DNA of 64,000 nt from a bacterium (GCA_021851895.1 JAJZQJ010000002.1:5046-69045), one strand, 5' to 3'; numbered from the stretch's first letter, positions 16,707 to 30,938 are shown. Program-made: numbers and translations. The notes: generated by a model from the sequence alone, not told the origin.

Positions 16707-17036
16707 TCCGGTGTAGCTCAGCGGTAGAGCAGTACGCTGTGGCGTTAAACGCAGCCCATTTCAGTAATGAAATGGTGAACAACGAGGTGAATTGCTGGAA
16801 ACCCTAACGAGAAAGACGAGGGCGATCAGCAGCCAAGCTTTGCGAGGAATCGCACTGAAGGTTCAGAGACTATCCGAAAGGAGTACTGAATATGCAAATA
16901 TTTGGGAAGCGCCTCGCACCCCACTCTTATAAAGCCGCAAGGCTTAACGAAGAAGGGTGATGATATAGTCCTCCCACTACGAAAGTAGTGAACATGAGTA
17001 ACGTATTGGTCGCAGGTTCGAATCCTGCCGCCGGAG
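16707..17036 (+). tRNA. tRNA-Asn(GUU) split by a group I intron; exon 1 16707-16740, exon 2 16999-17036
   Basis: Acceptor stem TCCGGTG/CGCCGGA (one G-U pair); D arm GCTC-AGCGGTA-GAGC; anticodon stem GTACG/CGTAT. The spliced anticodon loop is CTGT|TAA, giving anticodon GTT. T arm GCAGG-TTCGAAT-CCTGC, discriminator G73. Confidence 0.7.
16741..16998 (+). ncRNA. group I self-splicing intron (IC3-like, no ORF) inserted between anticodon positions 35/36
   Basis: Conserved R element GTTCAGAGACTA (16861-16872) and S element GATATAGTCC (16961-16970) form P7. P-like AATTGCTGGAAA and Q-like GATCAGCAGCC are present. P1: exon GCUGU pairs with IGS GCAGC, with a terminal U.G. P10: intron CGUUA pairs with 3' exon UAACG. 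The intron ends in G. Confidence 0.7.
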
Positions 17037-17037
17037 C
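17019..17037 (+). repeat. att-like core, copy 1 (inside the tRNA 3' end, from the T-loop to the discriminator)
   Basis: CGAATCCTGCCGCCGGAGC, identical to 17229-17247. Confidence 0.6.
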
Positions 17038-17656: not shown

Positions 17657-18118
17657 ATGTCATTTCCACTTCTCGACAGCATCGGTTTATTTCTCATGCT
17701 CTCAGGTTTCATCATCGGGCTCGGTGCAGTGACGGTCATCGACATCCATGGCTTTCTTGGTCGCACATCCTCATATTGGACTGAGGCGACCACGCGAACG
17801 CATAAAGTTACGAAGCCCATGATATGGGCCGGCATCTTTCTCTCTATCGTCGGTGGCGTCATATTCTATCGCAATCAGCCGTTCGCGGGGATTCCTGCGG
17901 CGCATGCGCTCATCGTCGTCGCGCTCCTCTTTAATGGATATTTCCTGTCCTGCAAAGTGAGTCCATTTCTCTTAGCTCGTGAGAGCGAAGGGAAGTCGGG
18001 GGAATTACTCCCGAGTGCATGGCAGCATAAGATCATGGTGAGCCTCATCGTGTCTGACATCGGCTGGTGGGGAGGACTCGTTCTCCTCGTTGTGTACCTC
18101 ACGAGTCGTTTATCATAA
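17657..18118 (+). CDS. hypothetical membrane protein (4 TM)
   Basis: 153 aa with four hydrophobic helices. No motif recognized. Confidence 0.4.
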   Translation: MSFPLLDSIGLFLMLSGFIIGLGAVTVIDIHGFLGRTSSYWTEATTRTHKVTKPMIWAGIFLSIVGGVIFYRNQPFAGIPAAHALIVVALLFNGYFLSCKVSPFLLARESEGKSGELLPSAWQHKIMVSLIVSDIGWWGGLVLLVVYLTSRLS

Positions 18119-18212
18119 ATGGGTGCCAGCGCGTAGGCACAAGTGCTTCGTGTATTGCGCTCCTCTTGTCCGTCGCTCTTTCTGTTCCGCTGCGGGAGTA
18201 TTTATGTGTAAT

Positions 18213-18242
18213 GAAAAACCGGGCGCAAATTGCGCGCCCGGA
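18213..18242 (-). terminator. intrinsic terminator for the GC-rich membrane-protein gene
   Basis: CCGGGCGC-AAATT-GCGCGCCCGG preceded by A5 (a T-run on the minus strand). Confidence 0.65.
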
Positions 18243-18257
18243 GTTTATTCTAATGTG

Positions 18258-20135
18258 CTATTTCTTCTGCTCACGGAGCAGCTGGAGCATCTTCTGCTTC
18301 TCGGCGTCCGTGAGGTTTTCCATCTGACTCGTCGCTTCACGAGCGTCCTTGATGACCGCGTCGGCCTCCGTGGAGACTTTGTGCTGGGCATCGAAGGACT
18401 CTTGGACCTTCGTCTTCGCGAGGGTGAGACCCTGGCACTTGATCGAGTTCAGTGCGATGACCGACTCGTCGTTCTCGAGGAACGATACGGTCACGATGTC
18501 GCCGACGTGGAGCACAGGCGCGACGCGCACGGCTTCATCGGTTCCGCGGGTGGCGAACAGGCGATCGTTCACGCCCTCAAGCGTGAAGTAGAAGGTCTTG
18601 TTCCCGCCGATGACGGTGTCGCCGGTGCGCGTGATGCGCACGGGACCGAGGGTCTTCTTCGCGAGCGCCTTGCCACTCGCCGCGACGGCGTTGCCGTCGC
18701 TCGCGAGCTTCTGGCGGTACGACTCGAGCGCGGTCGTGAGATCACTCTCGATGACGAGCGTATTCACGTTCTCCATAGAGACGAGCGCGACCTTCTGGAA
18801 GAAGGACTGCTCGTTGCTCACGATAGGGATGACCCAGGTGGCCTTGCCGAAGATGTTGTATGGCGTCGGGTGCGTGGGGTGCCAGGTCGTCGCATTCGCG
18901 CCGAGCTGACTGCTCACGGCCTTCATCGCACCGTCTTCGGTCGTGCCACGCATCGGATAGTACTCGGCGCCAGCGATACCCTTGCGGGAGTCGATCAGCA
19001 TGAGTCCGATGAGGGAATCATCCTTCGCATTACTGCTCGTGATGCCGACGCTCCAGTAGAGCTTGTCGCCGAGCTTCACGAGCCACAGGTCGCCCGCAGG
19101 CTTCACGCGGTCATGGTCGTCCCAATTGATGAAACCATGGACGAGGTTGCCCCAGTCGACGATCTGTTCCTTCGCTTGCGCCATGGGGCGGACGCGATCG
19201 ATCCACGAGGGAATCGTGCCGTCCTGCTTGTACTCGCAAGAACCGGTTTCGGGATCAGCGATGATGACGCCGACGGTCTGTTCGCCCCAGAAGCCGATGG
19301 TGGGAGTCATGACGCCGTACGTGTAGTACGGATGCCAGTTCTCGTCCACCTCGAAGGTGACGTCACTTCGGTTCGCCCAGGGAATGTCCTTGTAGACCTT
19401 GCGGTCCAGGTTGTCCCCGAAGACCGCGTTCGGTGTGTACCGAATGGCGAACTTCTTGCCGAGGGCATCCTCGGTGACGAGGGTCGCCTCACGGTTCGGG
19501 TCCTGCGCCGACACCCTGATGTAGCCGGGGATGATGTTGTCGTTGAGACTCGCGAAGTCCGTTGCGTAGTCGAGGGGGAAGATCCACCAGAGTTCGCCGC
19601 GGACCTCTTGGACGGCTCCGTGTTCGAAATCGACATCGAACAGCGACCCGAGGGATTTCCCGTCGGCATTCTGTCCGAGCGCTTTCTTCGCGATGGTGTG
19701 CGCCGTTGCCGCGGAGACCAAGCGGATGTGCTTGGTGTCGGCGAGGGGCACGTTTTCGTTGAAGCGCTGCTTCATCGAGACGTTCCCGATCACGTTGCGG
19801 TACGCTTCCGCATTGAACATCGGACTTGTGCCGATGGCCATGCCGAAGAGGCCGACGAGGATGAGGACGGGGACGGCAATCCCCGCGTGGGGATGGAAGT
19901 CGAAGTATTCGTCTTTTTCGAAGCTGAAGACGAGGCCGAGCACCGCGCCGGTGAGGACGAGGAGCCAGGACTCCGCGAAGCGGAACCCGACCGTGGGGAG
20001 GGCGAAGTACCCGCCGCAGAGGACGAGCAGGAAGGAGAGGCTGCCAGCGGTGATGTACCGCCACGGCGTCTTGATCTTCGCGAGGCCGATGGTGACGATC
20101 GCTGCGATCGCGGCCAGGATGGCGAGGGTGAGCAT
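18258..20135 (-). CDS. large membrane protein: N-terminal TM helices + about 520-aa extracytoplasmic domain (strongly GC-rich gene)
   Basis: 625 aa with hydrophobic N-terminal helices, then a soluble domain with balanced composition and a charged coiled-coil tail. The opposite-strand 695-aa ORF is R/D/G-rich, typical of an antisense artefact. Confidence 0.55.
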   Translation of the reverse strand: MLTLAILAAIAAIVTIGLAKIKTPWRYITAGSLSFLLVLCGGYFALPTVGFRFAESWLLVLTGAVLGLVFSFEKDEYFDFHPHAGIAVPVLILVGLFGMAIGTSPMFNAEAYRNVIGNVSMKQRFNENVPLADTKHIRLVSAATAHTIAKKALGQNADGKSLGSLFDVDFEHGAVQEVRGELWWIFPLDYATDFASLNDNIIPGYIRVSAQDPNREATLVTEDALGKKFAIRYTPNAVFGDNLDRKVYKDIPWANRSDVTFEVDENWHPYYTYGVMTPTIGFWGEQTVGVIIADPETGSCEYKQDGTIPSWIDRVRPMAQAKEQIVDWGNLVHGFINWDDHDRVKPAGDLWLVKLGDKLYWSVGITSSNAKDDSLIGLMLIDSRKGIAGAEYYPMRGTTEDGAMKAVSSQLGANATTWHPTHPTPYNIFGKATWVIPIVSNEQSFFQKVALVSMENVNTLVIESDLTTALESYRQKLASDGNAVAASGKALAKKTLGPVRITRTGDTVIGGNKTFYFTLEGVNDRLFATRGTDEAVRVAPVLHVGDIVTVSFLENDESVIALNSIKCQGLTLAKTKVQESFDAQHKVSTEADAVIKDAREATSQMENLTDAEKQKMLQLLREQKK

Positions 20136-20380
20136 GTATGCTCCTGTGTTGTGCCGGATATCGATCCGGTGTGTTGAAGGGAAAGAGCTTCGGCTGTCCG
20201 AAACTGGGAGATATTATACAATATTTTTATAGATTTGTAAATAGTATCGATGTGAGGGTTTTTCTCGCTTAAAATATTCCCCGGAACTTGCGAAAAGACA
20301 TCCTGATCTGACACGGAAGGGTCCTATCGGAGTTTTCGCATGTCCTGTGCGGAAAACTGAGAAATTTAGAGCTGAATTTA

Positions 20381-20413
20381 TTCACAATACTATATAAAAT
20401 GATATTATTGTGA
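20381..20413 (+). promoter_or_regulatory. inverted repeat TTCACAATA-N15-TATTGTGAA overlapping the radC promoter/start
   Basis: 9-bp perfect arms at 20381-20389 and 20405-20413. The right arm ends 2 nt before ATG 20416, and the AT-rich spacer is -10-like. Confidence 0.5.
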
Positions 20414-20415
20414 AC

Positions 20416-21093
20416 ATGAAACTAAAGGAATTGCATCGTGTCGAGCTTCCACGAGAGAAGTTGGTGAAATATGGCCCCAAGCGTCTCCAATCTGAGGAGT
20501 TGTTTGCAATAATTCTTGGCTCTGGTATTAAAGGGGTCAATGTTCTTACGCTTGCACGTACTGTACTCAAGCACATAGAGAAGAACAAAAATGAGACGAG
20601 CTTAGAAAGTCTCCTGAAGATTAAAGGGTTAGGGACGACTAAGGCGTTGCAGATTATTTCAATATTAGAAATATCTCGTAGGCTACAAGAAAAAGAGAAA
20701 GTAGAAATACTTTCCGCAAAAGATGTTTGGCAGCAGTGCGCAGATTTCCGTGGATCCAAGAAAGAGCACTTCGCCGCCTTCTATCTCGATACACAAAACC
20801 GCCTCATTGAAAGGCAGATCATTTCCGTTGGTACGCTCGATTCTTCTCTCGTCCATCCCCGTGAAGTCTTCGAGCCAGCACTCCGACTTTCTGCTGCATC
20901 GGTCATCGTCGCACATAATCATCCATCTGGTGATCTTGTGCCTTCGGGCGAAGACTTAAGGTTAACGAAACGCCTTAAAGGGGCGGGGGAGTTAATAGGC
21001 ATTAACGTCCTGGATCACATTATCTTGTCTGGCTCAGAACACGGAAGCATAGCTGAGTCAATTGACGATGTACTTAGTGAGAGTATGCTGTAG
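20416..21093 (+). CDS. radC: RadC-like JAB/MPN domain protein (UPF0758)
   Basis: N-terminal HhH-like region plus a JAMM motif (SVIVAHNHPSGDLVPSGED). Confidence 0.8.
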   Translation: MKLKELHRVELPREKLVKYGPKRLQSEELFAIILGSGIKGVNVLTLARTVLKHIEKNKNETSLESLLKIKGLGTTKALQIISILEISRRLQEKEKVEILSAKDVWQQCADFRGSKKEHFAAFYLDTQNRLIERQIISVGTLDSSLVHPREVFEPALRLSAASVIVAHNHPSGDLVPSGEDLRLTKRLKGAGELIGINVLDHIILSGSEHGSIAESIDDVLSESML

Positions 21094-21095
21094 TA

Positions 21096-21686
21096 ATGAA
21101 GCATGGCTGCGCTAAATTAGAGGAAGTCGCGGAAATCATTACAGGTTACTCCTTCCGAAAGAGCATAGAGCCTGATCCCAATGGTCAGATTTTTGTGGTG
21201 CAGGCAAAAGATATCGTAAATGGTGAAATAATTCAGTCTACCGAAAAGCTCACACGCATTCTTGAGGAGCCAAACCATCCAGCATATCTTCAGCGTGATG
21301 ATCTCTTATTGCTATCAAAAGTCTACCCTGGAGCGCAGTTTCGTACGACAATATATCAAGGTTTATCAGGGAAGGTTTTAGCAAGTTCTTCGATTCATGT
21401 GATCCGACTCAAGAATGATTCGGTGCTCCCAGAATACTTATTCATGCTCTTTTCTTCTGGTTTTACGCAGAAGTGGTTGCAAGAAAATTCAAGCGGTGTG
21501 AATACTCCGACGATGCCGCGCGCCACTCTTGGCACACTCACTATCCCAATCATTAGCATTGAGCAACAAAAAGCATATATTTCGCTGTCAAAAGAAATGA
21601 AAAACATGCAGCGTTTGCTCCAAGAGAAAGCTGACCTTATTGCTATCGTACAAGAACAGACACTTGTAAGCTTGATCACCTCGTAA
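21096..21686 (+). CDS. hsdS: type I R-M specificity subunit, half-size (single target-recognition domain)
   Basis: 196 aa. N-terminal KLEEVAEIITG, a TRD, then a conserved coiled-coil region (IPIISIEQQKAYISL...). The start overlaps the radC stop (TAATG). Confidence 0.7.
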   Translation: MKHGCAKLEEVAEIITGYSFRKSIEPDPNGQIFVVQAKDIVNGEIIQSTEKLTRILEEPNHPAYLQRDDLLLLSKVYPGAQFRTTIYQGLSGKVLASSSIHVIRLKNDSVLPEYLFMLFSSGFTQKWLQENSSGVNTPTMPRATLGTLTIPIISIEQQKAYISLSKEMKNMQRLLQEKADLIAIVQEQTLVSLITS

Positions 21687-21706
21687 AGATATAAAACAAA
21701 TTACGT

Positions 21707-22546
21707 ATGGCACAAACAATTTTTGAACAAATCAAGAAGGTAAATGAGTTCGGCGGAGAATATTGGCAGGCGCGTGAGCTCGCAAAGGTTCTTGAATATG
21801 CTGACTTTGGGAATTTTGAAAATGTCATTAAAAAGGCAATGGACGCCTGTGAGGCAAGTGGGCAGGAGGTTGCGGACCATTTCGGTGCTCTCACCGAGAT
21901 GGTCGAAATTGGGTCAGGAGCAAAGCGAGAAATGTCAAGTTATGCACTTTCACGCTATGCCTGTTATCTCATAATCCAGGGCGCAGATACGACGAAGATT
22001 ATTATCGCGAAAGCGCATACATATTTTGCCATACAGACAAGAAGGCAAGAAGTAGCCGACCTCCTTGTCGAAGACAATAAGCGTGTCTTCCTGCGTGAGG
22101 AGATGAAAAAGCATAATAAGAATCTGGTCAGTGCGGCAAAGGACGCAGGTGTGACCAATTATGCGAATTTCCAGGATGCAGGATATATGGGACTTTACGG
22201 TGGTATGCGCCAAAAAGACATTCTCGCGCGCAAGCGTCTCTCCGTGAAAGAGGGCATCCTCGATCACATGGGAAGCGAGGAGCTCGCTGCGAATCTTTTC
22301 CGCGCCACACAAACAGAGGCGAAATTACGACGAGACAACATTAGGGGCCAAATTAAGGCAAATCAAACGCACTATGATGTTGGAGGTAGAGTGCGTGCAA
22401 CCATTAAAGAATTAGGAGGAACGATGCCAGAGAAGTTGCCAAATCCAGGTCCGATAAAGGATTCCGTTAAGCGCATTAAGAGCTCAGCGAAGGCCAAGAG
22501 CATTGTTGAGGGGAAAGTAGTTGCGAGGAAAAAGAAAAAAGCGTAA
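21707..22546 (+). CDS. dinD: DNA-damage-inducible protein D (DinD)-like
   Basis: 279 aa. The segments YWQARELAKVLEY.DF.NF..V...A..ACEASGQ...DHF and SRYACYLIIQ..D..K...A..YFAIQTRRQE match the DinD family as recalled from memory. Confidence 0.55.
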   Translation: MAQTIFEQIKKVNEFGGEYWQARELAKVLEYADFGNFENVIKKAMDACEASGQEVADHFGALTEMVEIGSGAKREMSSYALSRYACYLIIQGADTTKIIIAKAHTYFAIQTRRQEVADLLVEDNKRVFLREEMKKHNKNLVSAAKDAGVTNYANFQDAGYMGLYGGMRQKDILARKRLSVKEGILDHMGSEELAANLFRATQTEAKLRRDNIRGQIKANQTHYDVGGRVRATIKELGGTMPEKLPNPGPIKDSVKRIKSSAKAKSIVEGKVVARKKKKA

Positions 22547-22568
22547 TGCTTAAGAAAAAATAAACATC

Positions 22569-24083
22569 ATGTCTACAAAAACATTCAATCAAGAGGAGCT
22601 CAATAAAGTACTTTGGGCAGCGGCTGATTCCTCTCGAGGTAAGGTTGACGCAAGTATCTATAAGGATTATGTGCTCACGATGCTCTTCTTCAAGTACATG
22701 AGTGATCTGCATAAGAAGACTTATGCAGAGTACCTTAAGCGTTTCGACGGAGATATTGATCGCGTTGAGGAGAAAATGCGTCTCGACCGCTTTGTGCTCC
22801 CCGAGACAGCAACTTTTGAAGCAGTATATGCACAGATAGAGAAGGACAACATCGGCGAAATCATCAATATCGCGCTTAAAGAGGTGGAGGCTGAGAACAG
22901 GGGGAAGCTTGATAAGGTCTTTGCCGTAGACTTCAATTCCGAAAACACCCTCGGTAAGCTCGATGAGCGTAATCGTATGCTGCGTAATTTGCTCAAAGAT
23001 TTCGCAAAGGTGGACTTCAGTGAGGCTGATGAAGACATTGTGGGAAATGCATACATGTATATGATTGAGCGCTTTGGCTCAGCGGCAGGGAAGAAAGCAG
23101 GAGAGTTCTTTACCCCCCGCTCTATCGCTTCGCTCGTCGCACGTCTTGCTGCACCAAAAGCAGGAGATCGTATCGCCGATATGGCCTGTGGGTCAGGCGG
23201 CCTCCTTTTGCTCGCAGGTGAGGAAGTCGAGAAGACTGGCTCAAAGAATTATGCTCTCTATGGTCAAGAGCTTACTGGTACTACCTACCAGCTCGCGCGT
23301 ATGAACATGTTCCTACATCAGAAGGATTCGGCACGCATTGAATGGGGCGATACGCTCAATAGTCCGCTCCTTGTGGAGAACGATCAGCTCATGCGCTTTG
23401 ACGTCTCTGTTGCAAATCCTCCCTTCTCGCTCAAGAAGTGGGGTGCAGAGAATGCAGAGAATGATAAGTACAATCGTTTCTGGCGCGGAATACCACCGAA
23501 GGACAAAGGAGACTATGCCTTCGTAACCCATATGGTTGAAACCACGAAGCCAAAGTCGGGTCGTGGTGTTATCGTCGTGCCCCATGGAGTGCTCTTCCGT
23601 GGTGGAGCGGAAGGGAGAATTCGTGAAGCATTGCTCAAGGAAAATATCATCGATGCAGTCATTGGGCTTCCTGCTGGGCTTTTCCAAACGACAGGTATCC
23701 CCGTCGCAATCCTTATATTCGATCGCTCTCGAGAAGTGGGGGGTGCGAACGAATCTCGCAAAGATGTGCTCTTCATTGAAGCCTCGAAAGAATTCAAGGC
23801 AGGCAAAGCGCAAAGTACCCTCACTGATGAGAATGCGGCAAAGATTATTGATACGTACAAGGGGAGAAAAGAAATCGAAAAGTTCTCTCGTAAAGTCTCG
23901 CTTAAAGAGATCGAGGAGGAAAATGACTTTAATCTAAATATCACTCGATATGTCGATACCTTTGAAGAGGAGGATGAAATTGATATTTCTGCAAATCTCA
24001 AAGAGTTATCTAAGGTAAACGCTGAATTGAAGGAGGTCGAGAAGAAGATGGAGGAGTATTTAAAGATGCTTAATATCGCATAA
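22569..24083 (+). CDS. hsdM: type I R-M N6-adenine DNA methyltransferase subunit
   Basis: 504 aa. N-terminal HsdM helical domain, AdoMet motif I (DMACGSGGLLL) and motif IV NPPF (VANPPFS). Confidence 0.9.
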   Translation: MSTKTFNQEELNKVLWAAADSSRGKVDASIYKDYVLTMLFFKYMSDLHKKTYAEYLKRFDGDIDRVEEKMRLDRFVLPETATFEAVYAQIEKDNIGEIINIALKEVEAENRGKLDKVFAVDFNSENTLGKLDERNRMLRNLLKDFAKVDFSEADEDIVGNAYMYMIERFGSAAGKKAGEFFTPRSIASLVARLAAPKAGDRIADMACGSGGLLLLAGEEVEKTGSKNYALYGQELTGTTYQLARMNMFLHQKDSARIEWGDTLNSPLLVENDQLMRFDVSVANPPFSLKKWGAENAENDKYNRFWRGIPPKDKGDYAFVTHMVETTKPKSGRGVIVVPHGVLFRGGAEGRIREALLKENIIDAVIGLPAGLFQTTGIPVAILIFDRSREVGGANESRKDVLFIEASKEFKAGKAQSTLTDENAAKIIDTYKGRKEIEKFSRKVSLKEIEEENDFNLNITRYVDTFEEEDEIDISANLKELSKVNAELKEVEKKMEEYLKMLNIA

Positions 24084-24086
24084 AAC

Positions 24087-25100
24087 ATGGCAAAGGTAAA
24101 ACAGGCAACAAAAACTTGGGAAGAGCTCGAGAAATTAAGACTCGAATTCGAACAGAGGCTCTTTCCGCAGGTTAAAGCAAAAATTGATGAAATAGAAGCC
24201 TATAGAGATACTCTTCTCGATGACAATGAAAAGAAGTCATTAAGCACGACTATTTCTGAGTTGTCGGATAAAATCACCGAACTAGAGGAGTCCTTCAAAG
24301 AAAAATTCAGTGACATAGAAACTTTGCATGAGAGGATTTTTCACGGGGATGAGGAGAATGATGCGTTGTCTGATCAGGTTGATGAGTTTGTAAATAAAGC
24401 AAAAGGAGAGCTTGCTGGCTTGAATACAAAACACGCTGATATTAATAGGTATCATGAAAAGGTATTTGGTGAGAAGGATGCTTCTGGAAAGTATTCAGGT
24501 GGGCTCGCGTCAGAGCTAGAAAAGTATGGAAAGAAGTATGAAGCCCTATTTGGCCAAATAGAAGGCTTATTGCCAGGTGCTACAAGTGCTGGTCTTGCTC
24601 AGGCATTTAGCGATAAGGTTGATGAATACAAGAAAGAGGCTTCAAAGTGGAAGTGGATTACTTTTGGCTCCTTGTGTATCGCAGTCGTTCTTAGTATCGT
24701 CTCATACTGGCTTGATCGTGGTCAGGTGCTCTCGTTTTCATTTGTCATGATCCGGCTTGCACAGAAATTGCCTTTTGTTTTGTTTGCAGTTTGGCTGGTT
24801 GTATATGCAAATAATCGACGTGCAGAAAATAAAAAACTCGAAGAGTCATATAAGCATAAAGAGGTAATCGCGAGATCTTTTGTGGGCTATAGGAAGCAAA
24901 TTGAGGATCTCGATCTCGACACTGAAGATAATAATTTACTTATTTCGCTCACGACAGGATTACTTGATGCCATCATGATCAATTCATCAGATTTCTTAAC
25001 AGCGACTGGCGAGAAGAGTCCGATTCATGAAATGCTTGATAAAGCTGCAGATACTGCGAGTGCCGCAGTATCTAGCCCTGTAATTTCTATAAAGAAATAA
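24087..25100 (+). CDS. coiled-coil / 2-TM protein of unknown function embedded between hsdM and hsdS (candidate membrane effector)
   Basis: 337 aa. About 190 aa of heptad-rich helical N-terminus, then two adjacent TM helices (WKWITFGSLCIAVVLSIVSYWL; LPFVLFAVWLVVYANN) and about 100 aa of C-terminus. ATG 3 nt after the hsdM stop and 3 nt before the hsdS start. Confidence 0.6.
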   Translation: MAKVKQATKTWEELEKLRLEFEQRLFPQVKAKIDEIEAYRDTLLDDNEKKSLSTTISELSDKITELEESFKEKFSDIETLHERIFHGDEENDALSDQVDEFVNKAKGELAGLNTKHADINRYHEKVFGEKDASGKYSGGLASELEKYGKKYEALFGQIEGLLPGATSAGLAQAFSDKVDEYKKEASKWKWITFGSLCIAVVLSIVSYWLDRGQVLSFSFVMIRLAQKLPFVLFAVWLVVYANNRRAENKKLEESYKHKEVIARSFVGYRKQIEDLDLDTEDNNLLISLTTGLLDAIMINSSDFLTATGEKSPIHEMLDKAADTASAAVSSPVISIKK

Positions 25101-25103
25101 TTC

Positions 25104-26246
25104 ATGGAACTAGCGAAACAAAAAATTCCGTCCACTTGGCAAAAACTTCGCCTCGGTGATTGTCTGACAATAAAGCATGGTAAATCACAAAAAGAAATTG
25201 AAGTAGTCGATGGTAAATATCCCATCCTTGCTTCAGGTGGAGTTATAGGGAGAACTAATACTCCACTATATAGTAAGCCATCAGTATTAATCGGTAGAAA
25301 AGGGACGATTGATAAGCCTAGATACATGGATACTCCTTTTTGGACGGTAGATACGCTATTTTACAGTCAGGTAAAGGACAACTCTGTACCCAAGTATTTG
25401 TTTTATGTATTCAATTTCATTGACTGGTATGAATACAATGAGGCTTCGGGAGTCCCAAGTCTTTCGTCGAGCACTATTTCCTCAATAGAAGTTCTACTTC
25501 CTCCTCTCCCTGAACAAAACCGCATCGTTTCGGTTCTTGAAACCTGGGATAAGGCAATTGAAAAACTTTCTCGAAAGATTGAAATTAAGAAGGAAATCAA
25601 GAGGGGATTGATGCGGGGCTTACTGACTGGCAAGCTCAGGGTAACAGGTCGCGGTGGGAGTTGGGATGTCTATAAAATCGGTGACATAATTGTTGAAAGT
25701 CGAATTCCTTCCAAGAGTTTTGATGTTACTAAAAGGATTAGTGTGCGACTAAATATGAATGGCGTAGAGAGTAGGGAAGTGCGAGGTACTGAGGCTGAGG
25801 GCTCGACCATGTTTTTCGTTAGGAGCGCTGGTCAGTTTGTTTATGGAAAGCAAAATTTATATAAGGGAGCGATGGGGATTATTCCAGAACAGCTTAATGG
25901 TTATGAGAGCACTCAAGATATCCCCTCTTTTGATTTCAGGGAAGGATTTGATTCTAAGTGGTTCTTGTATTTCATGGGCAGAGAAAGTTTTTATTCGCAA
26001 CTTGAAGATATTGCAACTGGTTCAGGGTCCAAGCGAATTCATCCACGAGATTTATTTAAAATTAAGATTCGGGTACCTAAATATGACGAACAGTTAGCAA
26101 TTGCATCTGTGCTATCGGTTGCCGATTCGGAAATCCGCATACTTACCCAAAAACAGCAGTGTCTAGAGAGGCAGAAAAAGTTTCTCCTTAATAATCTTGT
26201 CACTGGAAAAATTCGTACTCCAGAAAACCTACAATATGCTAAATAA
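25104..26246 (+). CDS. hsdS: type I R-M specificity subunit (two TRDs)
   Basis: 380 aa. Two TRDs separated and followed by conserved regions (LLPPLPEQNRIVSVLE...; VPKYDEQLAIASVL...). Confidence 0.85.
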   Translation: MELAKQKIPSTWQKLRLGDCLTIKHGKSQKEIEVVDGKYPILASGGVIGRTNTPLYSKPSVLIGRKGTIDKPRYMDTPFWTVDTLFYSQVKDNSVPKYLFYVFNFIDWYEYNEASGVPSLSSSTISSIEVLLPPLPEQNRIVSVLETWDKAIEKLSRKIEIKKEIKRGLMRGLLTGKLRVTGRGGSWDVYKIGDIIVESRIPSKSFDVTKRISVRLNMNGVESREVRGTEAEGSTMFFVRSAGQFVYGKQNLYKGAMGIIPEQLNGYESTQDIPSFDFREGFDSKWFLYFMGRESFYSQLEDIATGSGSKRIHPRDLFKIKIRVPKYDEQLAIASVLSVADSEIRILTQKQQCLERQKKFLLNNLVTGKIRTPENLQYAK

Positions 26247-29200
26247 AGTCCATTTTGATGAAGCGCGTCAGGTACAGTTGCCCGCAGTAGAGTTGCTCAT
26301 AAGCCTTGGTTATGAGTATATTTCGGTGAGCGAGGCGCTGCGTGAGCGTGGGGGAGATGAACGTAACGTAATACTGCGTGATATCGCGCGTGCGAAGTTA
26401 ATGGAAATTAATAGCTATGAGCTCGATGGTGAAAAGATGCAATTCACTCCTCGCGATGTGAATGAGGCTATTGATGAGCTCGAAAACCTTCCATTTGAGG
26501 GACTTCAGAAGACCGCACAAAACATTTACCGCATGATCATGCCGACGAGTGGCGGGAAGACTGTCGAGGTGCGTAAGGGAGACTCGAAAAACTTTCGTTT
26601 CATCGATTTTGCGGAACCCCATAATAATGCTTTTCATGTGACGGTAGAATATACCGTCGTTGGTAAAGAAGAGATCCGCCCGGATATCGTTTGTTTTGTG
26701 AATGGTTTTCCTATTGCGGTTATCGAAAGCAAGAAGCATACGGTATCGGTGGAAGAAGCACTAGAGCAGATGGTGCGCAATCAAGGCGTCGAATATGCTC
26801 CAAAACTATATACCTTTGCACAGATACTTGTGGGCTCAAATGGTACTGATTTCCGCTATGGTACAACCGGCACTGGCGAGAAATTTTATGCAGTCTGGAA
26901 AGAAAAGCCTAGAGAGAAAGGAGAGGCGGATCTTGAGCGACTTGATGCGCGCGTAAAGGAATTAATTGCTCAGCCGATTGCCGTAGGTGTGTATCAAGAA
27001 TTGCTCAATGACTTGAGCCGAGGCCAATCACATCATGAGCAACTTTGCGATCGCCCTATTACTGCGCAAGATCGCAGTATCGTCGCACTCTTTACGCCAG
27101 AGCGCTTACTTGATCTCACAAAGCACTTTGTGATTTTCGATGCAATGGAGAAGAAGATTGCACGCTATCAGCAGTATTTTGCTATTGAGAAGATGCGTCG
27201 CCGTGTGATGGAGAAGGAGGCCGCACCTGAGGGCGGCGAGCGTCGCCGTGGCGGTATCGTCTGGCATACACAAGGGTCTGGAAAGTCGCTGACGATGGTG
27301 CTCTTCGTGAAGGCGCTTATAGAGGATGAGCATATTAAGAATCCTCGTGTCATTATTGTTACCGACCGCAGAGATCTTGATAGGCAAATCAAGGGAACGT
27401 TTGAGAATTGTGGACTCAAGAAGGACGTCGTCCAGGCAAAGACGGGACAGCACCTGCTTGATCTTATTCAAGAGAAGAATCTTGGAGTCATCACCACTCT
27501 CGTGCAAAAGTTTGAGAGCGTCGCGAAGAAGCGTGAAGATTTTGTTGACCCCGATGAGAACATCTTTGTGCTCATCGATGAGGCGCATCGTACCCACGGC
27601 GGTATGGCGAGCCTTGAGATGTCCCGCACAATACCGAATGCTTGCTATATTGCCTTTACGGGTACGCCACTCATGCGCGAGGAGAAGGAGAGCTGGAGGC
27701 GTTTTGGGGCATATATTGACAAATATACCATTGATGACGCCGTGCTCGATGGTAATGTGCTCCCACTGATCTATGAGGGACGCTTTGTGCCGCTTGTGCA
27801 GAATGCAAAGAAGATTGATGAGCTTGTTGATCGTGTAAAAGAGCGTGCAATACACAAATACCAGTCCAATGGTGAAGAAGATAAACGCGAAGAGGAGTCG
27901 GTAAATCGCGAAGCGTTGGTCAATAATCCACAGCGCCTCCGTGAAATAGTCCATGATATTGAATCGCATTATAAGATGGAGCTGCAGGGGACAGGACTTA
28001 AGGCGCAAGTTGTTGCTCCCAGCAAATTTGCGGCAGTAAAAATGCAACAAATGTTTCTCGAGAGCGGGTTGGTGAAGTCTGCGGTCGTTGTCTCAGATGA
28101 GTCGGGGATTGTTCATGAGGATGACTACCGAAGGCAGGAAGTTGTCGATTTCTTGGATAAGATAAAAGATACTCATTCGAGTATTGAAGAATATGAGAAA
28201 GAAGTGATTCGCGACTTCAAGGATAATGCAGATGGTGTCGAAGTGCTTATCGTTGTCCATAAGCTCCTCACGGGTTTTGATGCCCCAAGAAATACCGTGC
28301 TTTACCTCGCAAAGAGTTTGAGGGACCATGACTTACTTCAAGCAATTGCTCGTGTGAACAGGCTTTGCGATAAGGGCAAGAAGCAGAAAACATCAGGGTA
28401 TATTATTGATTATTCCGAGAATGCACAACACCTCAAGAGTGCGATGCAGCTCTTTGGGAACTACGAGGAGGACGATGTGCACGGCACGCTTGTGGACGTG
28501 GGAGAGAAGATGCAGGAACTGGCACAAGCATATGCGGCCATACATGATATTTTTCGTGGCGTGCATGGGGCGAAGACGGTAGAACCGTTCATGGAGGTGC
28601 TCAAGGCAGAGGATACACGCGTGGAATTTAATGCCGCAGTAAATACATACACAAAGCTCTTCAGTGAATGTCTTGCGTTGAAGGATTTCAATGAGAACTT
28701 CAAAGATATTGATCTGTATAAGCGAGAGCTCAGAAAGTTCGTCGAATTAAGAAAGCTTTCGCGGTTCAGATACGGCGAGCGAACGGACTTTAATGAGTAC
28801 AAATTTGCGTTGATGCGTATCCTTGATCAGTATGTTGATACCGAAGGAGGCGTGGAGCGTCTTACTGAAAAGATTGATGTTCGCGATATTGCTCAGGTGC
28901 GTAAGGCTGTTGAAGAGATCGTAGATAGCAAGGAGAAGGCTGAGGCGATTGCGACACAGGTGAATAAGACTATTCACGACCGTGAGGCTGAGGATCCTGT
29001 CTACTATAAGTCACTCTCGGAACGAGTTGAGGAAATTATACGAGCGATGCGAGAGGGGAGAATGCAAGACCTCGTTGCCCTTGAAGGGCTCGAAGAATTG
29101 CTCATTGCCGCAAATGAGAAGAAGCAGGCCTCAGTACCAAGTCAGATTGAAGCTGAACATGGAGCAGATCTATTTTATCGAAATTTACTTCCACATTTTG

Positions 29201-29454
29201 AGCGTTTTCATCTTATCTCAGATCAAGAGGTGATGCTTTCATTGAGTGTCTTTAAGATTATTAAAGAATTTGCAATAGTCGATTTTGAGCATAACGTCGA
29301 TGTACAGCGCCGCATGCGTAGTGCGCTTGATGACTACTTGTATGATGGTTTCCCTTCCGAGTGGAATGTTTCGCTATCTTCGAGAGAAAGGGGAGACATA
29401 GTTGCCGCAATGGTTGAACTCGCAAAACACAATCATGAGCTCTTTAGTGCATAA
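26236..29454 (+). CDS. hsdR: type I R-M restriction subunit (helicase/endonuclease)
   Basis: About 1072 aa. N-terminal nuclease region, SF2 helicase motifs (GSGKSLTM Walker A; DEAH: LIDEAHRTHGG; motif VI QAIARVNR). The ATG at 26236 overlaps the hsdS stop. Confidence 0.9.
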   Translation: MLNKVHFDEARQVQLPAVELLISLGYEYISVSEALRERGGDERNVILRDIARAKLMEINSYELDGEKMQFTPRDVNEAIDELENLPFEGLQKTAQNIYRMIMPTSGGKTVEVRKGDSKNFRFIDFAEPHNNAFHVTVEYTVVGKEEIRPDIVCFVNGFPIAVIESKKHTVSVEEALEQMVRNQGVEYAPKLYTFAQILVGSNGTDFRYGTTGTGEKFYAVWKEKPREKGEADLERLDARVKELIAQPIAVGVYQELLNDLSRGQSHHEQLCDRPITAQDRSIVALFTPERLLDLTKHFVIFDAMEKKIARYQQYFAIEKMRRRVMEKEAAPEGGERRRGGIVWHTQGSGKSLTMVLFVKALIEDEHIKNPRVIIVTDRRDLDRQIKGTFENCGLKKDVVQAKTGQHLLDLIQEKNLGVITTLVQKFESVAKKREDFVDPDENIFVLIDEAHRTHGGMASLEMSRTIPNACYIAFTGTPLMREEKESWRRFGAYIDKYTIDDAVLDGNVLPLIYEGRFVPLVQNAKKIDELVDRVKERAIHKYQSNGEEDKREEESVNREALVNNPQRLREIVHDIESHYKMELQGTGLKAQVVAPSKFAAVKMQQMFLESGLVKSAVVVSDESGIVHEDDYRRQEVVDFLDKIKDTHSSIEEYEKEVIRDFKDNADGVEVLIVVHKLLTGFDAPRNTVLYLAKSLRDHDLLQAIARVNRLCDKGKKQKTSGYIIDYSENAQHLKSAMQLFGNYEEDDVHGTLVDVGEKMQELAQAYAAIHDIFRGVHGAKTVEPFMEVLKAEDTRVEFNAAVNTYTKLFSECLALKDFNENFKDIDLYKRELRKFVELRKLSRFRYGERTDFNEYKFALMRILDQYVDTEGGVERLTEKIDVRDIAQVRKAVEEIVDSKEKAEAIATQVNKTIHDREAEDPVYYKSLSERVEEIIRAMREGRMQDLVALEGLEELLIAANEKKQASVPSQIEAEHGADLFYRNLLPHFERFHLISDQEVMLSLSVFKIIKEFAIVDFEHNVDVQRRMRSALDDYLYDGFPSEWNVSLSSRERGDIVAAMVELAKHNHELFSA

Positions 29455-30169
29455 ACAAAACATACGACATAAAGGTGAAGTCTTTGAGTACCAAGTGTGG
29501 CGTTCTGGTCGTAAAACTCTCGCCCTCACGGTAACTCCTGCCATGGAGCTTATTGTGCGTTCTCCTTTTGAAAAGAGCCTAGAGGAGATTGAGAATTTTC
29601 TCATGCGTAAAATACAATGGGTTCGAAAGCAGCTCGCATTCTTCGGCACACAGGAGCCTGCTCAGGTTGAACGTCGATATATTTCCGGGGAAGCGCATTA
29701 TTATCTTGGGAGGCAGTATATGCTCGAAGTTGCTGAAAGTCATCGAGAATATGTAAGTGTTTCTCGTGAGCGTATTATGCTTTATCGTAGGTCCGAGAAT
29801 TCTCGTGATTTGATGGGAGCAAAGCAATTATTTCTGAAGTGGCAGAGTGAGATGGTTGCGAAACATCTTAATGAGCGATATCGTGCAATGTCACGACTCT
29901 TTGATTATAAGGACATACCAACTATGGAGATCAAAGCCATGGAAAAGCGTTGGGGGAGTTACCGTGTGAAGACAAAATCAATCGCGCTTAATGCAAAGCT
30001 GATCCATGCTCCACTCGATGCCATTGATTATGTTATCGTGCATGAACTTTGTCATCACGAGCATCATGATCATGGTAAGGAGTTTTATAAGCTTCTAAGT
30101 AGAAAGATGCCAAACTGGCAGGTTGAAAAGAAGAAACTTGAGCGATACGGCGCTCTTGTGTGCGGATGA
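29435..30169 (+). CDS. DUF45/YgjP-like zinc metallohydrolase (WLM/SprT-like), overlapping the hsdR 3' end
   Basis: HELCHHEHHDHGKEFY motif (HEXXH...H). This family is commonly encoded next to hsdR. The ATG at 29435 lies 20 nt inside hsdR. Confidence 0.7.
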   Translation: MSSLVHKQNIRHKGEVFEYQVWRSGRKTLALTVTPAMELIVRSPFEKSLEEIENFLMRKIQWVRKQLAFFGTQEPAQVERRYISGEAHYYLGRQYMLEVAESHREYVSVSRERIMLYRRSENSRDLMGAKQLFLKWQSEMVAKHLNERYRAMSRLFDYKDIPTMEIKAMEKRWGSYRVKTKSIALNAKLIHAPLDAIDYVIVHELCHHEHHDHGKEFYKLLSRKMPNWQVEKKKLERYGALVCG

Positions 30170-30171
30170 GT

Positions 30172-30196
30172 AAAAATGGGGTCATGCCCCATTTTT
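30172..30196. repeat. REP-like palindrome AAAAATGGGG-TCATG-CCCCATTTTT (also acts as a terminator)
   Basis: Same family as the hairpins flanking the RAYT gene at 35882 and 36665. Confidence 0.55.
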
Positions 30197-30257
30197 CTTG
30201 CAACTCATTTGCATCTCCATGGTATAATACCCATATTCTTGTCTCTTCTGCCCTGTT

Positions 30258-30938
30258 ATGAAACTCTCGAAATCTTCACATTTCCGGCCACTTGGGGAGG
30301 ACCGTTCACTGCATCAGCATCAACGGCAAATGCTCCATATGCTCGCTGCTATCGAGGCGTCGCGCGCTGAGCTTTCGCGACTTCGCGCGGAATTGCGGAA
30401 GGTGGGAGAGGAGTCAGTGCGCGATCCGCTTACTAATCTACTCAATACGCGTGGTCTCGAGCGTGCTTGGGAGCGTTTTGCGTCCGCATTCACTCGTGGT
30501 CACTATAGGGAGGTCGCGATCGCTTTCATCGATCTCAATGGTTTCAAGTTCGTGAATGATTATGCGGGACATGATGTTGGTGACGGTCTTTTGCGTGCGT
30601 TTGGTGTGCGGCTCTCTGAAACATTACGCCCGACCGATATCGTTGCTCGTGTTGGTGGGGATGAGTTCGTACTCGTGCTCCCTGGTGTTGGAGAGGGCGG
30701 TGCTCGAGCGCTCGTCGATCGCATTCGTATGCGCTCTGCAGATCTTTATATGGATCACCCGGATTGTATACGTGTCGCGAAAGCGAGCGGTGCTGGTAGA
30801 GTGCTCGACTTCTCTTCGGGAGCTATCGATGTCCGACATCCTGATACACTTCCGCCGCTCTCGCATCTACTTAAAGCGGCGGAGGGACGTGTTGAGAAAT
30901 TCAATGCGCGTCGCCAGCTTTTCGATGTGCATGCATAG
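30258..30938 (+). CDS. GGDEF-domain diguanylate cyclase (short coiled-coil N-terminus), GC-rich
   Basis: DPLTNLLNTRG, IDLNGFKFVNDYAGHDVGD and RVGGDEFVLVL (GGDEF motif). Confidence 0.8.
   Translation: MKLSKSSHFRPLGEDRSLHQHQRQMLHMLAAIEASRAELSRLRAELRKVGEESVRDPLTNLLNTRGLERAWERFASAFTRGHYREVAIAFIDLNGFKFVNDYAGHDVGDGLLRAFGVRLSETLRPTDIVARVGGDEFVLVLPGVGEGGARALVDRIRMRSADLYMDHPDCIRVAKASGAGRVLDFSSGAIDVRHPDTLPPLSHLLKAAEGRVEKFNARRQLFDVHA

Follow-up and report, generated by a model that had tools for sequence, protein, structure and literature searches.

The short specificity gene at positions 21096-21686 of the window, the whole 64,000-nucleotide stretch of bacterial DNA that was analysed, is an intact member of a large cross-phylum protein family whose genes are near-obligately linked, in both directions, to one clade of HsdM proteins. 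The product of this gene (short S) and its relatives evolve vertically under purifying selection, while the recognition domains of the full-length HsdS proteins (long S) encoded beside them are swapped. The locus is ordinary within its family, and the family is a poorly characterised, very widespread variant of type I systems. On comparative evidence, we see about an even chance that short S has a constant accessory or assembly role, as a dedicated HsdM-coupled subunit in a type I system of type IC-like character, and is not a spare or switchable specificity.

In the window, the genes radC, short S, dinD-like, hsdM, orf337, full hsdS, hsdR and sprT/ygjP-like follow one another in this order on the + strand as a tightly packed operon, with successive intergenic gaps of 2, 20, 22, 3, 3, -11 and -20 nt. 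The original prediction that two specificity genes share one operon, the second being a complete HsdS of 380 aa, was confirmed: both genes are on the same strand, and the full hsdS (25104-26246) matched Pfam Methylase_S in two stretches (E=2.5e-28), corresponding to two target-recognition domains (TRDs) and two conserved helices, the latter bearing the EQ..IA..L / K.GLM..LLTG-type motif common to the long S proteins of the clade. The half-size gene had also been placed upstream of hsdM, which is correct, but it does not lie directly upstream, because a dinD-like/Bro-N cargo gene (21707-22546; NCBIfam DNA damage-inducible protein D, E=3e-106; Pfam Bro-N; PADLOC PDC-S13, E=2e-105) is inserted between the two and leaves a gap of 882 nt. 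This makes the window unusual, as short S normally abuts hsdM in relatives, where DinD-like genes are found at other operon positions. The dinD-like protein also matched the first 268 of the 717 positions of the PADLOC 'Specificity_I' model, which shows that DinD-HsdS fusions exist.

The hsdM gene (22569-24083, 504 aa) was identified by Pfam N6_Mtase (E=2.5e-97), HsdM_N and TIGR00497. Among solved chains, its product is nearest to PacII M1/M2 (7vru, 2e-91), then to 3lkd and then to EcoR124I HsdM (7bst, 3e-61), and we therefore consider it type IC-like. The hsdR gene (26236-29454, 1072 aa, start taken from the gene call) matched Pfam HSDR_N, SWI2_SNF2, ResIII and T1R_D3-like domains and TIGR00348 (E=2e-146). 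Its end is overlapped by the last gene of the operon, encoding a YgjP/SprT-like zinc metallopeptidase (29435-30169; Pfam YgjP-like, E=6e-49), which recurs in the last position after hsdR in many related loci.

The cargo gene orf337 (24087-25100, 337 aa) encodes a protein with a predicted coiled-coil N-terminal part and a hydrophobic C-terminal part, for which searches of Pfam, NCBIfam and PADLOC returned no Pfam family and only weak SMC-like coiled-coil matches. A homologue of 494 aa (E=2e-16) lies within the hsd operon of Cellvibrio sp. OA-2007 (L026, 4878-6362), and orf337 may be an embedded abortive-infection-type effector. Relatives' operons carry DinD-like, KilA-N, RhuM, AAA_15, Fic, SLFN, Abi and NucS genes at varying positions. 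At the other end of the operon, the radC-like JAB gene (20416-21093, start from the gene call; Pfam RadC, E=7e-40; NCBIfam RadC) ends 2 nt before short S. As RadC lies upstream of short S in only 2 of 81 loci, namely the window and L002, we regard radC as a neighbour rather than a core part, and rejected a functional pairing of RadC with short S. Locus L002 (radC-like gene at 1547-2194) shows the same radC/short-S adjacency, with an Mrr-like nuclease gene upstream.

Short S is a 196-aa protein, encoded from ATG to TAA on the + strand, with one TRD-like globular domain and one long C-terminal helix. Pfam, structure prediction and Foldseek agree on this half-size layout of one TRD and one conserved helix, as originally proposed. 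Pfam matched the protein once, to Methylase_S (PF01420, E=1.9e-10, residues 7-160), and an AlphaFold2 model built on ten homologues (pLDDT 91.8) has a globular domain at residues 1-153 and one helix of ~40 residues at 155-195, which extends ~38 residues past a conserved Q and equals the long-S helices in length. When this model was searched against the PDB with Foldseek, the top match was the half-S homodimer Esub1 (8vsr/8vsq; E about 1e-10, TM 0.68-0.72), followed by the HsdS chains 1yf2, 2y7c, 7vru and 3okg; by sequence, the profile of the short-S family matched 1yf2 at 2e-22 and Esub1 at 1.6e-17. Short S thus has the architecture of the HsdS/Methylase_S superfamily (PF01420), a TRD fold followed by a long conserved-region helix, but with one domain and one helix in 196 aa it is not a canonical type I HsdS, which has two TRDs and two conserved helices per chain.

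The copy in the window departs from its relatives in several respects. Of the 40 family columns with the highest conservation it still matches 29 (family median, 31), but KV replaces a conserved RG, and I replaces the hinge proline. Its pI of 6.2 makes it an acidic outlier against a family median of 9.2-9.4, a median at which a role of the family as DNA mimic or acidic decoy was rejected. Together with the dinD insertion, the acidic pI and the lost RG and hinge proline might reflect relaxed constraint at the window locus.

It had been suggested that the half-size gene could serve as a recombination reservoir, and a frameshifted remnant had been named as the case that would refute the proposal; neither idea was borne out. 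BLASTP found no significant similarity between short S and the full HsdS (E=0.34), and the proposed alignment of the two genes for recombination-prone repeats, extended to direct and inverted repeats over 20300-30300, gave only imperfect matches of 14-19 nt at chance level. The two genes have the same orientation, and on the identical public contig the genes called up to 10 kb away in each direction include no recombinase. Phase-variable loci with more than one hsdS, such as the SpnD39III-type invertons and those of a REBASE survey (PMC7394358), need inverted repeats that the hsdS copies have in common and, as a rule, a recombinase, whereas the window locus has neither. Regions shared with the long hsdS, as expected of half-HsdS genes derived by truncation (the NgoAV and EcoR124I deletion type), were likewise absent: the short-S helix is 0.21-0.23 identical to the long-S helices of the same locus, while the two long-S helices are 0.33 identical to each other. 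A reservoir role was therefore rejected, as was a frameshifted remnant, since relatives are intact, of ~190 aa and under purifying selection.

Family membership was established from a seed alignment (A1) of ten proteins aligned over their full length; all homologues in this first set are 182-196 aa long. The window protein, like the family at large, is a full-length profile match within the size range of ~180-240 aa. A profile search of 1.84 billion representatives returned at least 1177 clusters (50% identity) at E<=1e-30, and the best 150 of these 1177 representatives are all 180-240 aa proteins with single full-length matches; a further profile search, at E<=1e-10, retrieved 2154 clusters. 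Independent members scored 112-158 bits against the family HMM. When each species was represented by a single genome, a scan found 80 loci spread over many phyla, including Bacteroidota, Verrucomicrobiota (among them Akkermansia), Planctomycetota, Desulfobacterota, Gammaproteobacteria, Spirochaetota, Bacillota and candidate phyla, and ORF and HMM analysis found the short single-domain gene in 81 loci. The family probably comprises thousands of systems, including those on Acinetobacter, Vibrio and Photobacterium plasmids and in Akkermansia and Bacteroidota genomes.

Linkage to hsdM was apparent from the first four distant homologues (25-42% identity), in each of which the short gene directly precedes hsdM in an operon that also holds a full hsdS and hsdR, with KilA-N, AAA_15, RhuM, Bro-N, Fic and SLFN genes as variable members. 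In the genome loci with at least 300 nt downstream, hsdM was the next hsd gene on the same strand in 73 of 75, a score that considers only ORFs matching hsd, RadC, DinD, orf337 and YgjP queries, so that unrelated genes may lie between. Where hsdM was found, the two genes overlap or are separated by no more than 21 nt in 64 of 76 loci. With at least 9 kb of downstream sequence (42 genome loci), a long hsdS was present in 39 and hsdR in 38, and the three loci lacking long S are degraded, with a truncated M, a split R or no M. The usual order in relatives is short S, hsdM, (cargo), long hsdS, (cargo), hsdR and sprT/ygjP-like, to which the window conforms apart from the inserted dinD. The same order is found on the annotated plasmids pAP2044-1 of Acinetobacter pittii, pCECT7223 of Vibrio atlanticus and pAQU1 of Photobacterium damselae, the last with the short gene annotated as hypothetical; matches on Klebsiella plasmids turned out to be ordinary long S and were rejected as family members.

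The linkage also holds in the reverse direction. Eighty metagenome loci were anchored on HsdM proteins 48-70% identical to that of the window, and 68 of them had at least 650 nt upstream; a short single-domain S was found just upstream of the anchoring HsdM in 65 of the 68. Among the 34 metagenome loci with long flanks, 33 carry both S types, one (L117) carries long S only and none carries short S only. In total, short and long S occur together in 72 of the 76 loci with enough flanking sequence (39 of 42 genome and 33 of 34 metagenome loci).

Two related arrangements were noted in passing. On a Bacteroides finegoldii plasmid (L091, 8935-10991), a family short S (156 bits) is followed by an intact HsdM-like methylase of 490 aa with no long hsdS or hsdR nearby; the two genes may form a methylase pair that stands alone, or may be what a deletion has left. 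Methylase-half-S fusions occur in Corynebacterium glutamicum p48A (L095, 5433-7475), where the fusion gene directly precedes a second hsdM, a long hsdS and hsdR, and in Streptomyces goshikiensis (L094, 6120-8609). The S parts of these fusions scored 59-72 bits, outside the short-S family, and their use as Rosetta-stone evidence was rejected.

The two kinds of specificity gene evolve differently. Over 54 loci, the median pairwise identity was 0.60 for HsdM and 0.28 for short S. In pairs whose HsdM proteins are at least 85% identical (n=31), the short-S TRD was on average 73% identical and long S only 37%, indicating that long S is domain-swapped and short S is not. Column-wise identities over 40 loci were 0.29-0.39 for the TRD and 0.28 for the helix of short S, compared with 0.15-0.18 and 0.40-0.48, respectively, for the long-S units. 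The pattern of canonical HsdS, with hypervariable, swapped TRDs and conserved helices, is therefore reversed in short S, and the EQ..IA..L...KKGLMQ.LLT-type motif shared by the long-S helices is missing from the short-S helix. In eight closely related pairs, dN/dS was 0.08-0.18 for short S and 0.02-0.05 for HsdM. As the family is basic like long S and retains the TRD scaffold motifs, sequence-specific DNA binding by its members is plausible.

We propose that short S would pair through its single exposed 40-residue helix, most probably as a homodimer like those of Esub1 and engineered half-S proteins, and that it would bind HsdM; both co-translation with HsdM and binding to it are suggested by the abutment or overlap of the two genes. 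It would then act as a constant accessory or assembly subunit that the methylase or endonuclease needs for accurate and efficient action at the asymmetric site specified by long S, and would supply no variable or switchable second specificity. Given that neither S type is found without the other in the clade, apart from the exceptions above, each is probably irreplaceable by the other. More tentatively, and with somewhat less than even probability, this widespread type I clade may consist of four-component machines in which an invariant half-S-like subunit, co-translated with HsdM, is obligate beside the variable S.

The closest functional precedent is the hsdRSMS type I variant of Staphylococcus xylosus TMW 2.1023 and TMW 2.1324, in which a 191-aa hsdS_short directly precedes hsdM (Schiffer et al. 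2023, PMC10030836). The staphylococcal hsdS_short is fully conserved among strains with differing motifs, has nothing in common with hsdS_long and is never found inside one. When hsdSMS was expressed in Escherichia coli, the expected non-palindromic motif was methylated at 0.93-0.98 and no extra palindromic motif appeared, while hsdMS alone gave degenerate low-fraction motifs or none (PMC10030836). In that study complementation failed and there was no control for HsdM protein levels, which leaves room for a polar or translational effect on HsdM.

We compared this locus (NZ_CP066727.1) with that of the window. Both encode a short S of ~190 aa with one TRD-like domain and a helix, and a long hsdS after hsdM; in both the S. 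xylosus system and the window's family, short S shares no region with long S and is conserved while the long-S TRDs vary. The gene orders differ, being R-S_short-M-S_long on plasmids or SCC elements in staphylococci and S_short-(dinD)-M-(orf337)-S_long-R-sprT-like in the window, and the functional tests come from the staphylococcal system. S. xylosus HsdM, also type IC-like, is 39% identical to the window HsdM. Membership of the window short S in the staphylococcal hsdS_short family was rejected by all three comparisons: BLASTP of the staphylococcal protein against the short-S family was not significant; its score against the family HMM was 53 bits, within the range of ordinary long-S units (20-67) and below that of true members (112-158); and hhalign gave 107 against the short-S family and 106-107 against canonical N- and C-terminal units. 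The window system thus resembles hsdRSMS in every comparative respect, yet, judged from the protein sequences, its short S appears to belong to a different lineage. As the staphylococcal protein is not a specific relative, the functional analogy may not transfer; as it is no closer to the family than ordinary TRD units are, the same half-S solution may have arisen at least twice.

A second locus of similar composition is BlihIA of Bacillus licheniformis DSM13 (749489-756576), likened to the window by its gene content and not by sequence, which encodes one full and one half HsdS with a single TRD. Both HsdS forms were recovered together with His-tagged HsdR on purification, and RTAC N5 GCT, which is asymmetric, was the only motif detected (PMC12429846). 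The BlihIA half HsdS does not appear among the 120 matches listed for the second profile search. In the literature searched, the layout is treated for S. xylosus and BlihIA, and neither account describes how the layout is spread across phyla, the linkage in both directions or the differing evolution of the two S types presented here. A search for methylomes of short-S family hosts (Akkermansia and others) found nothing usable.

The main alternative, which we consider less likely, is that short S provides a fixed second specificity: an S-like body would form from two copies held together by their helices and, joined by two HsdM (and HsdR), would both methylate and restrict a symmetric bipartite site, so that a system would combine a variable long S with a slowly drifting short S. 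This comes close to the original proposal of a palindromic second specificity through homodimerisation, which is mechanistically possible. Half-S proteins produced by truncation homodimerise and recognise palindromic sites in EcoR124I and EcoDXXI deletions and in NgoAV, all type IC-like (PMC3874165), a half HsdS of Staphylococcus aureus is likewise functional as a homodimer (PMC6158711), and in Lactococcus the addition of a truncated single-domain S (TRD1-S.Lcr033I) to a full system yielded an extra palindromic motif and greater phage resistance (PMC12418389). The window short S, with its single TRD and one helix as long as those of long S, could in principle homodimerise in the same way; the family's basic character and retained scaffold motifs, its tight linkage to hsdM, which suggests a partner of HsdM, and the stand-alone pair in B. 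finegoldii are all consistent with such a role. However, the truncated and engineered half HsdS proteins are derived from a normal long S and share its conserved regions, whereas the short-S family forms a separate lineage, whose helix is its own and less conserved and whose TRD is not shuffled.

Other points also count against a second specificity. Its TRD is not swapped, unlike the TRDs of the neighbouring long S; the conserved-region motif through which long S presumably docks HsdM is missing from its helix; and operons with short S, M and R and no long S would be expected, none of which was found intact among the 76 loci. No palindromic motif was detected in S. xylosus (PMC10030836) or in BlihIA (PMC12429846), each of which has one non-palindromic motif. 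As these two systems are analogues and not demonstrated relatives, the palindromic proposal is weakened but not refuted.

It is improbable, in our view, that short S is instead a regulator whose homodimer, by itself or together with HsdM, would occupy a symmetric operator or titrate HsdM or HsdR, and would so control expression or delay restriction in a new host in the manner of a C protein or a restriction-alleviation factor. Such a role would fit the position of short S as the first hsd gene in most related loci examined (the window and L002 having radC ahead of it) and its constant, non-shuffled, DNA-binding-like domain. Its closest solved structure, Esub1 (SpyM3_0890) of Streptococcus pyogenes, is a crystallographic half-S homodimer (8vsq/8vsr) that was proposed to be transcription-factor-like and shows no clear HsdM binding (PMC11754733), but its gene lies at a distance from the hsd genes, the protein contains an inserted helix that binds paratox, and its identity to the window short S is just 19%. 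The toxicity of staphylococcal hsdS_short when over-expressed alone (PMC10030836) and the regulatory hybrid dimer on which the BlihIA authors speculate (PMC12429846) point in the same direction. Against regulation, overlap or near-abutment with hsdM suits a stoichiometric partner at least equally well, and in classical systems neither S nor M alone binds DNA (PMC3874165). A promoter and terminator scan of the operon gave signals at or near background, and in the window the 2-nt gap after radC leaves short S no promoter region of its own.

Finally, it is highly improbable that short S is what remains of an older, decayed hsdS, or that it is a silent cassette with which the full hsdS can recombine: half-size hsdS fragments do occur in shufflon-type loci, e.g. 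in Prevotella intermedia, and the window copy departs from some family consensus positions, but its reading frame is intact and matches a family of ~190-aa members over its full length, the relatives' dN/dS values are low, similarity, repeats, inverted orientation and a nearby recombinase are all lacking, and the position of the gene is conserved over many phyla.

The standard teaching is that type I enzymes are R2M2S machines made from three genes, and an additional hsdS is usually read as a phase-variation cassette or as debris. In the short-S family, a constant half-size S-like protein is linked to hsdM as tightly as the classical subunits are. If short S is an obligate accessory subunit, a fourth component would have to enter the structural model of type I assembly, implying an architecture or an assembly checkpoint beyond M2S and R2M2S, and predicting motifs from the number of hsdS genes would over-count specificities. 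Expressing hsdM and long hsdS alone in a methylation strain is a common trick against restriction barriers; with an obligate short S, such strains would fail for these systems, as in S. xylosus. If short S instead confers a fixed symmetric specificity, these systems would combine a stable mark with a variable one.

Two further features lie upstream of the operon in the window. A tRNA gene at 16708-17037 (+) is interrupted by a group I intron at ~16741-16998 (Rfam RF00028, 74.5 bits, full model); ARAGORN did not report any tRNA for the window. The exons are compatible with tRNA-Asn(GUU), with U1-A72, G73 and, after splicing at U16740/G16998, the anticodon loop CUGUUAA, although the splice junction is ambiguous and Thr-AGU is an alternative. 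In bacteria, tRNA-Asn is not known as one of the tRNAs that usually host group I introns. In a segment of 60% GC, two long ORFs overlap in antisense, one of 695 aa at 18090-20177 (+) and one of 625 aa at 18258-20135 (-). Neither has a Pfam match; the public gene call is on the + strand, while the translation of the - strand, with N-terminal hydrophobic helices, looks more protein-like.
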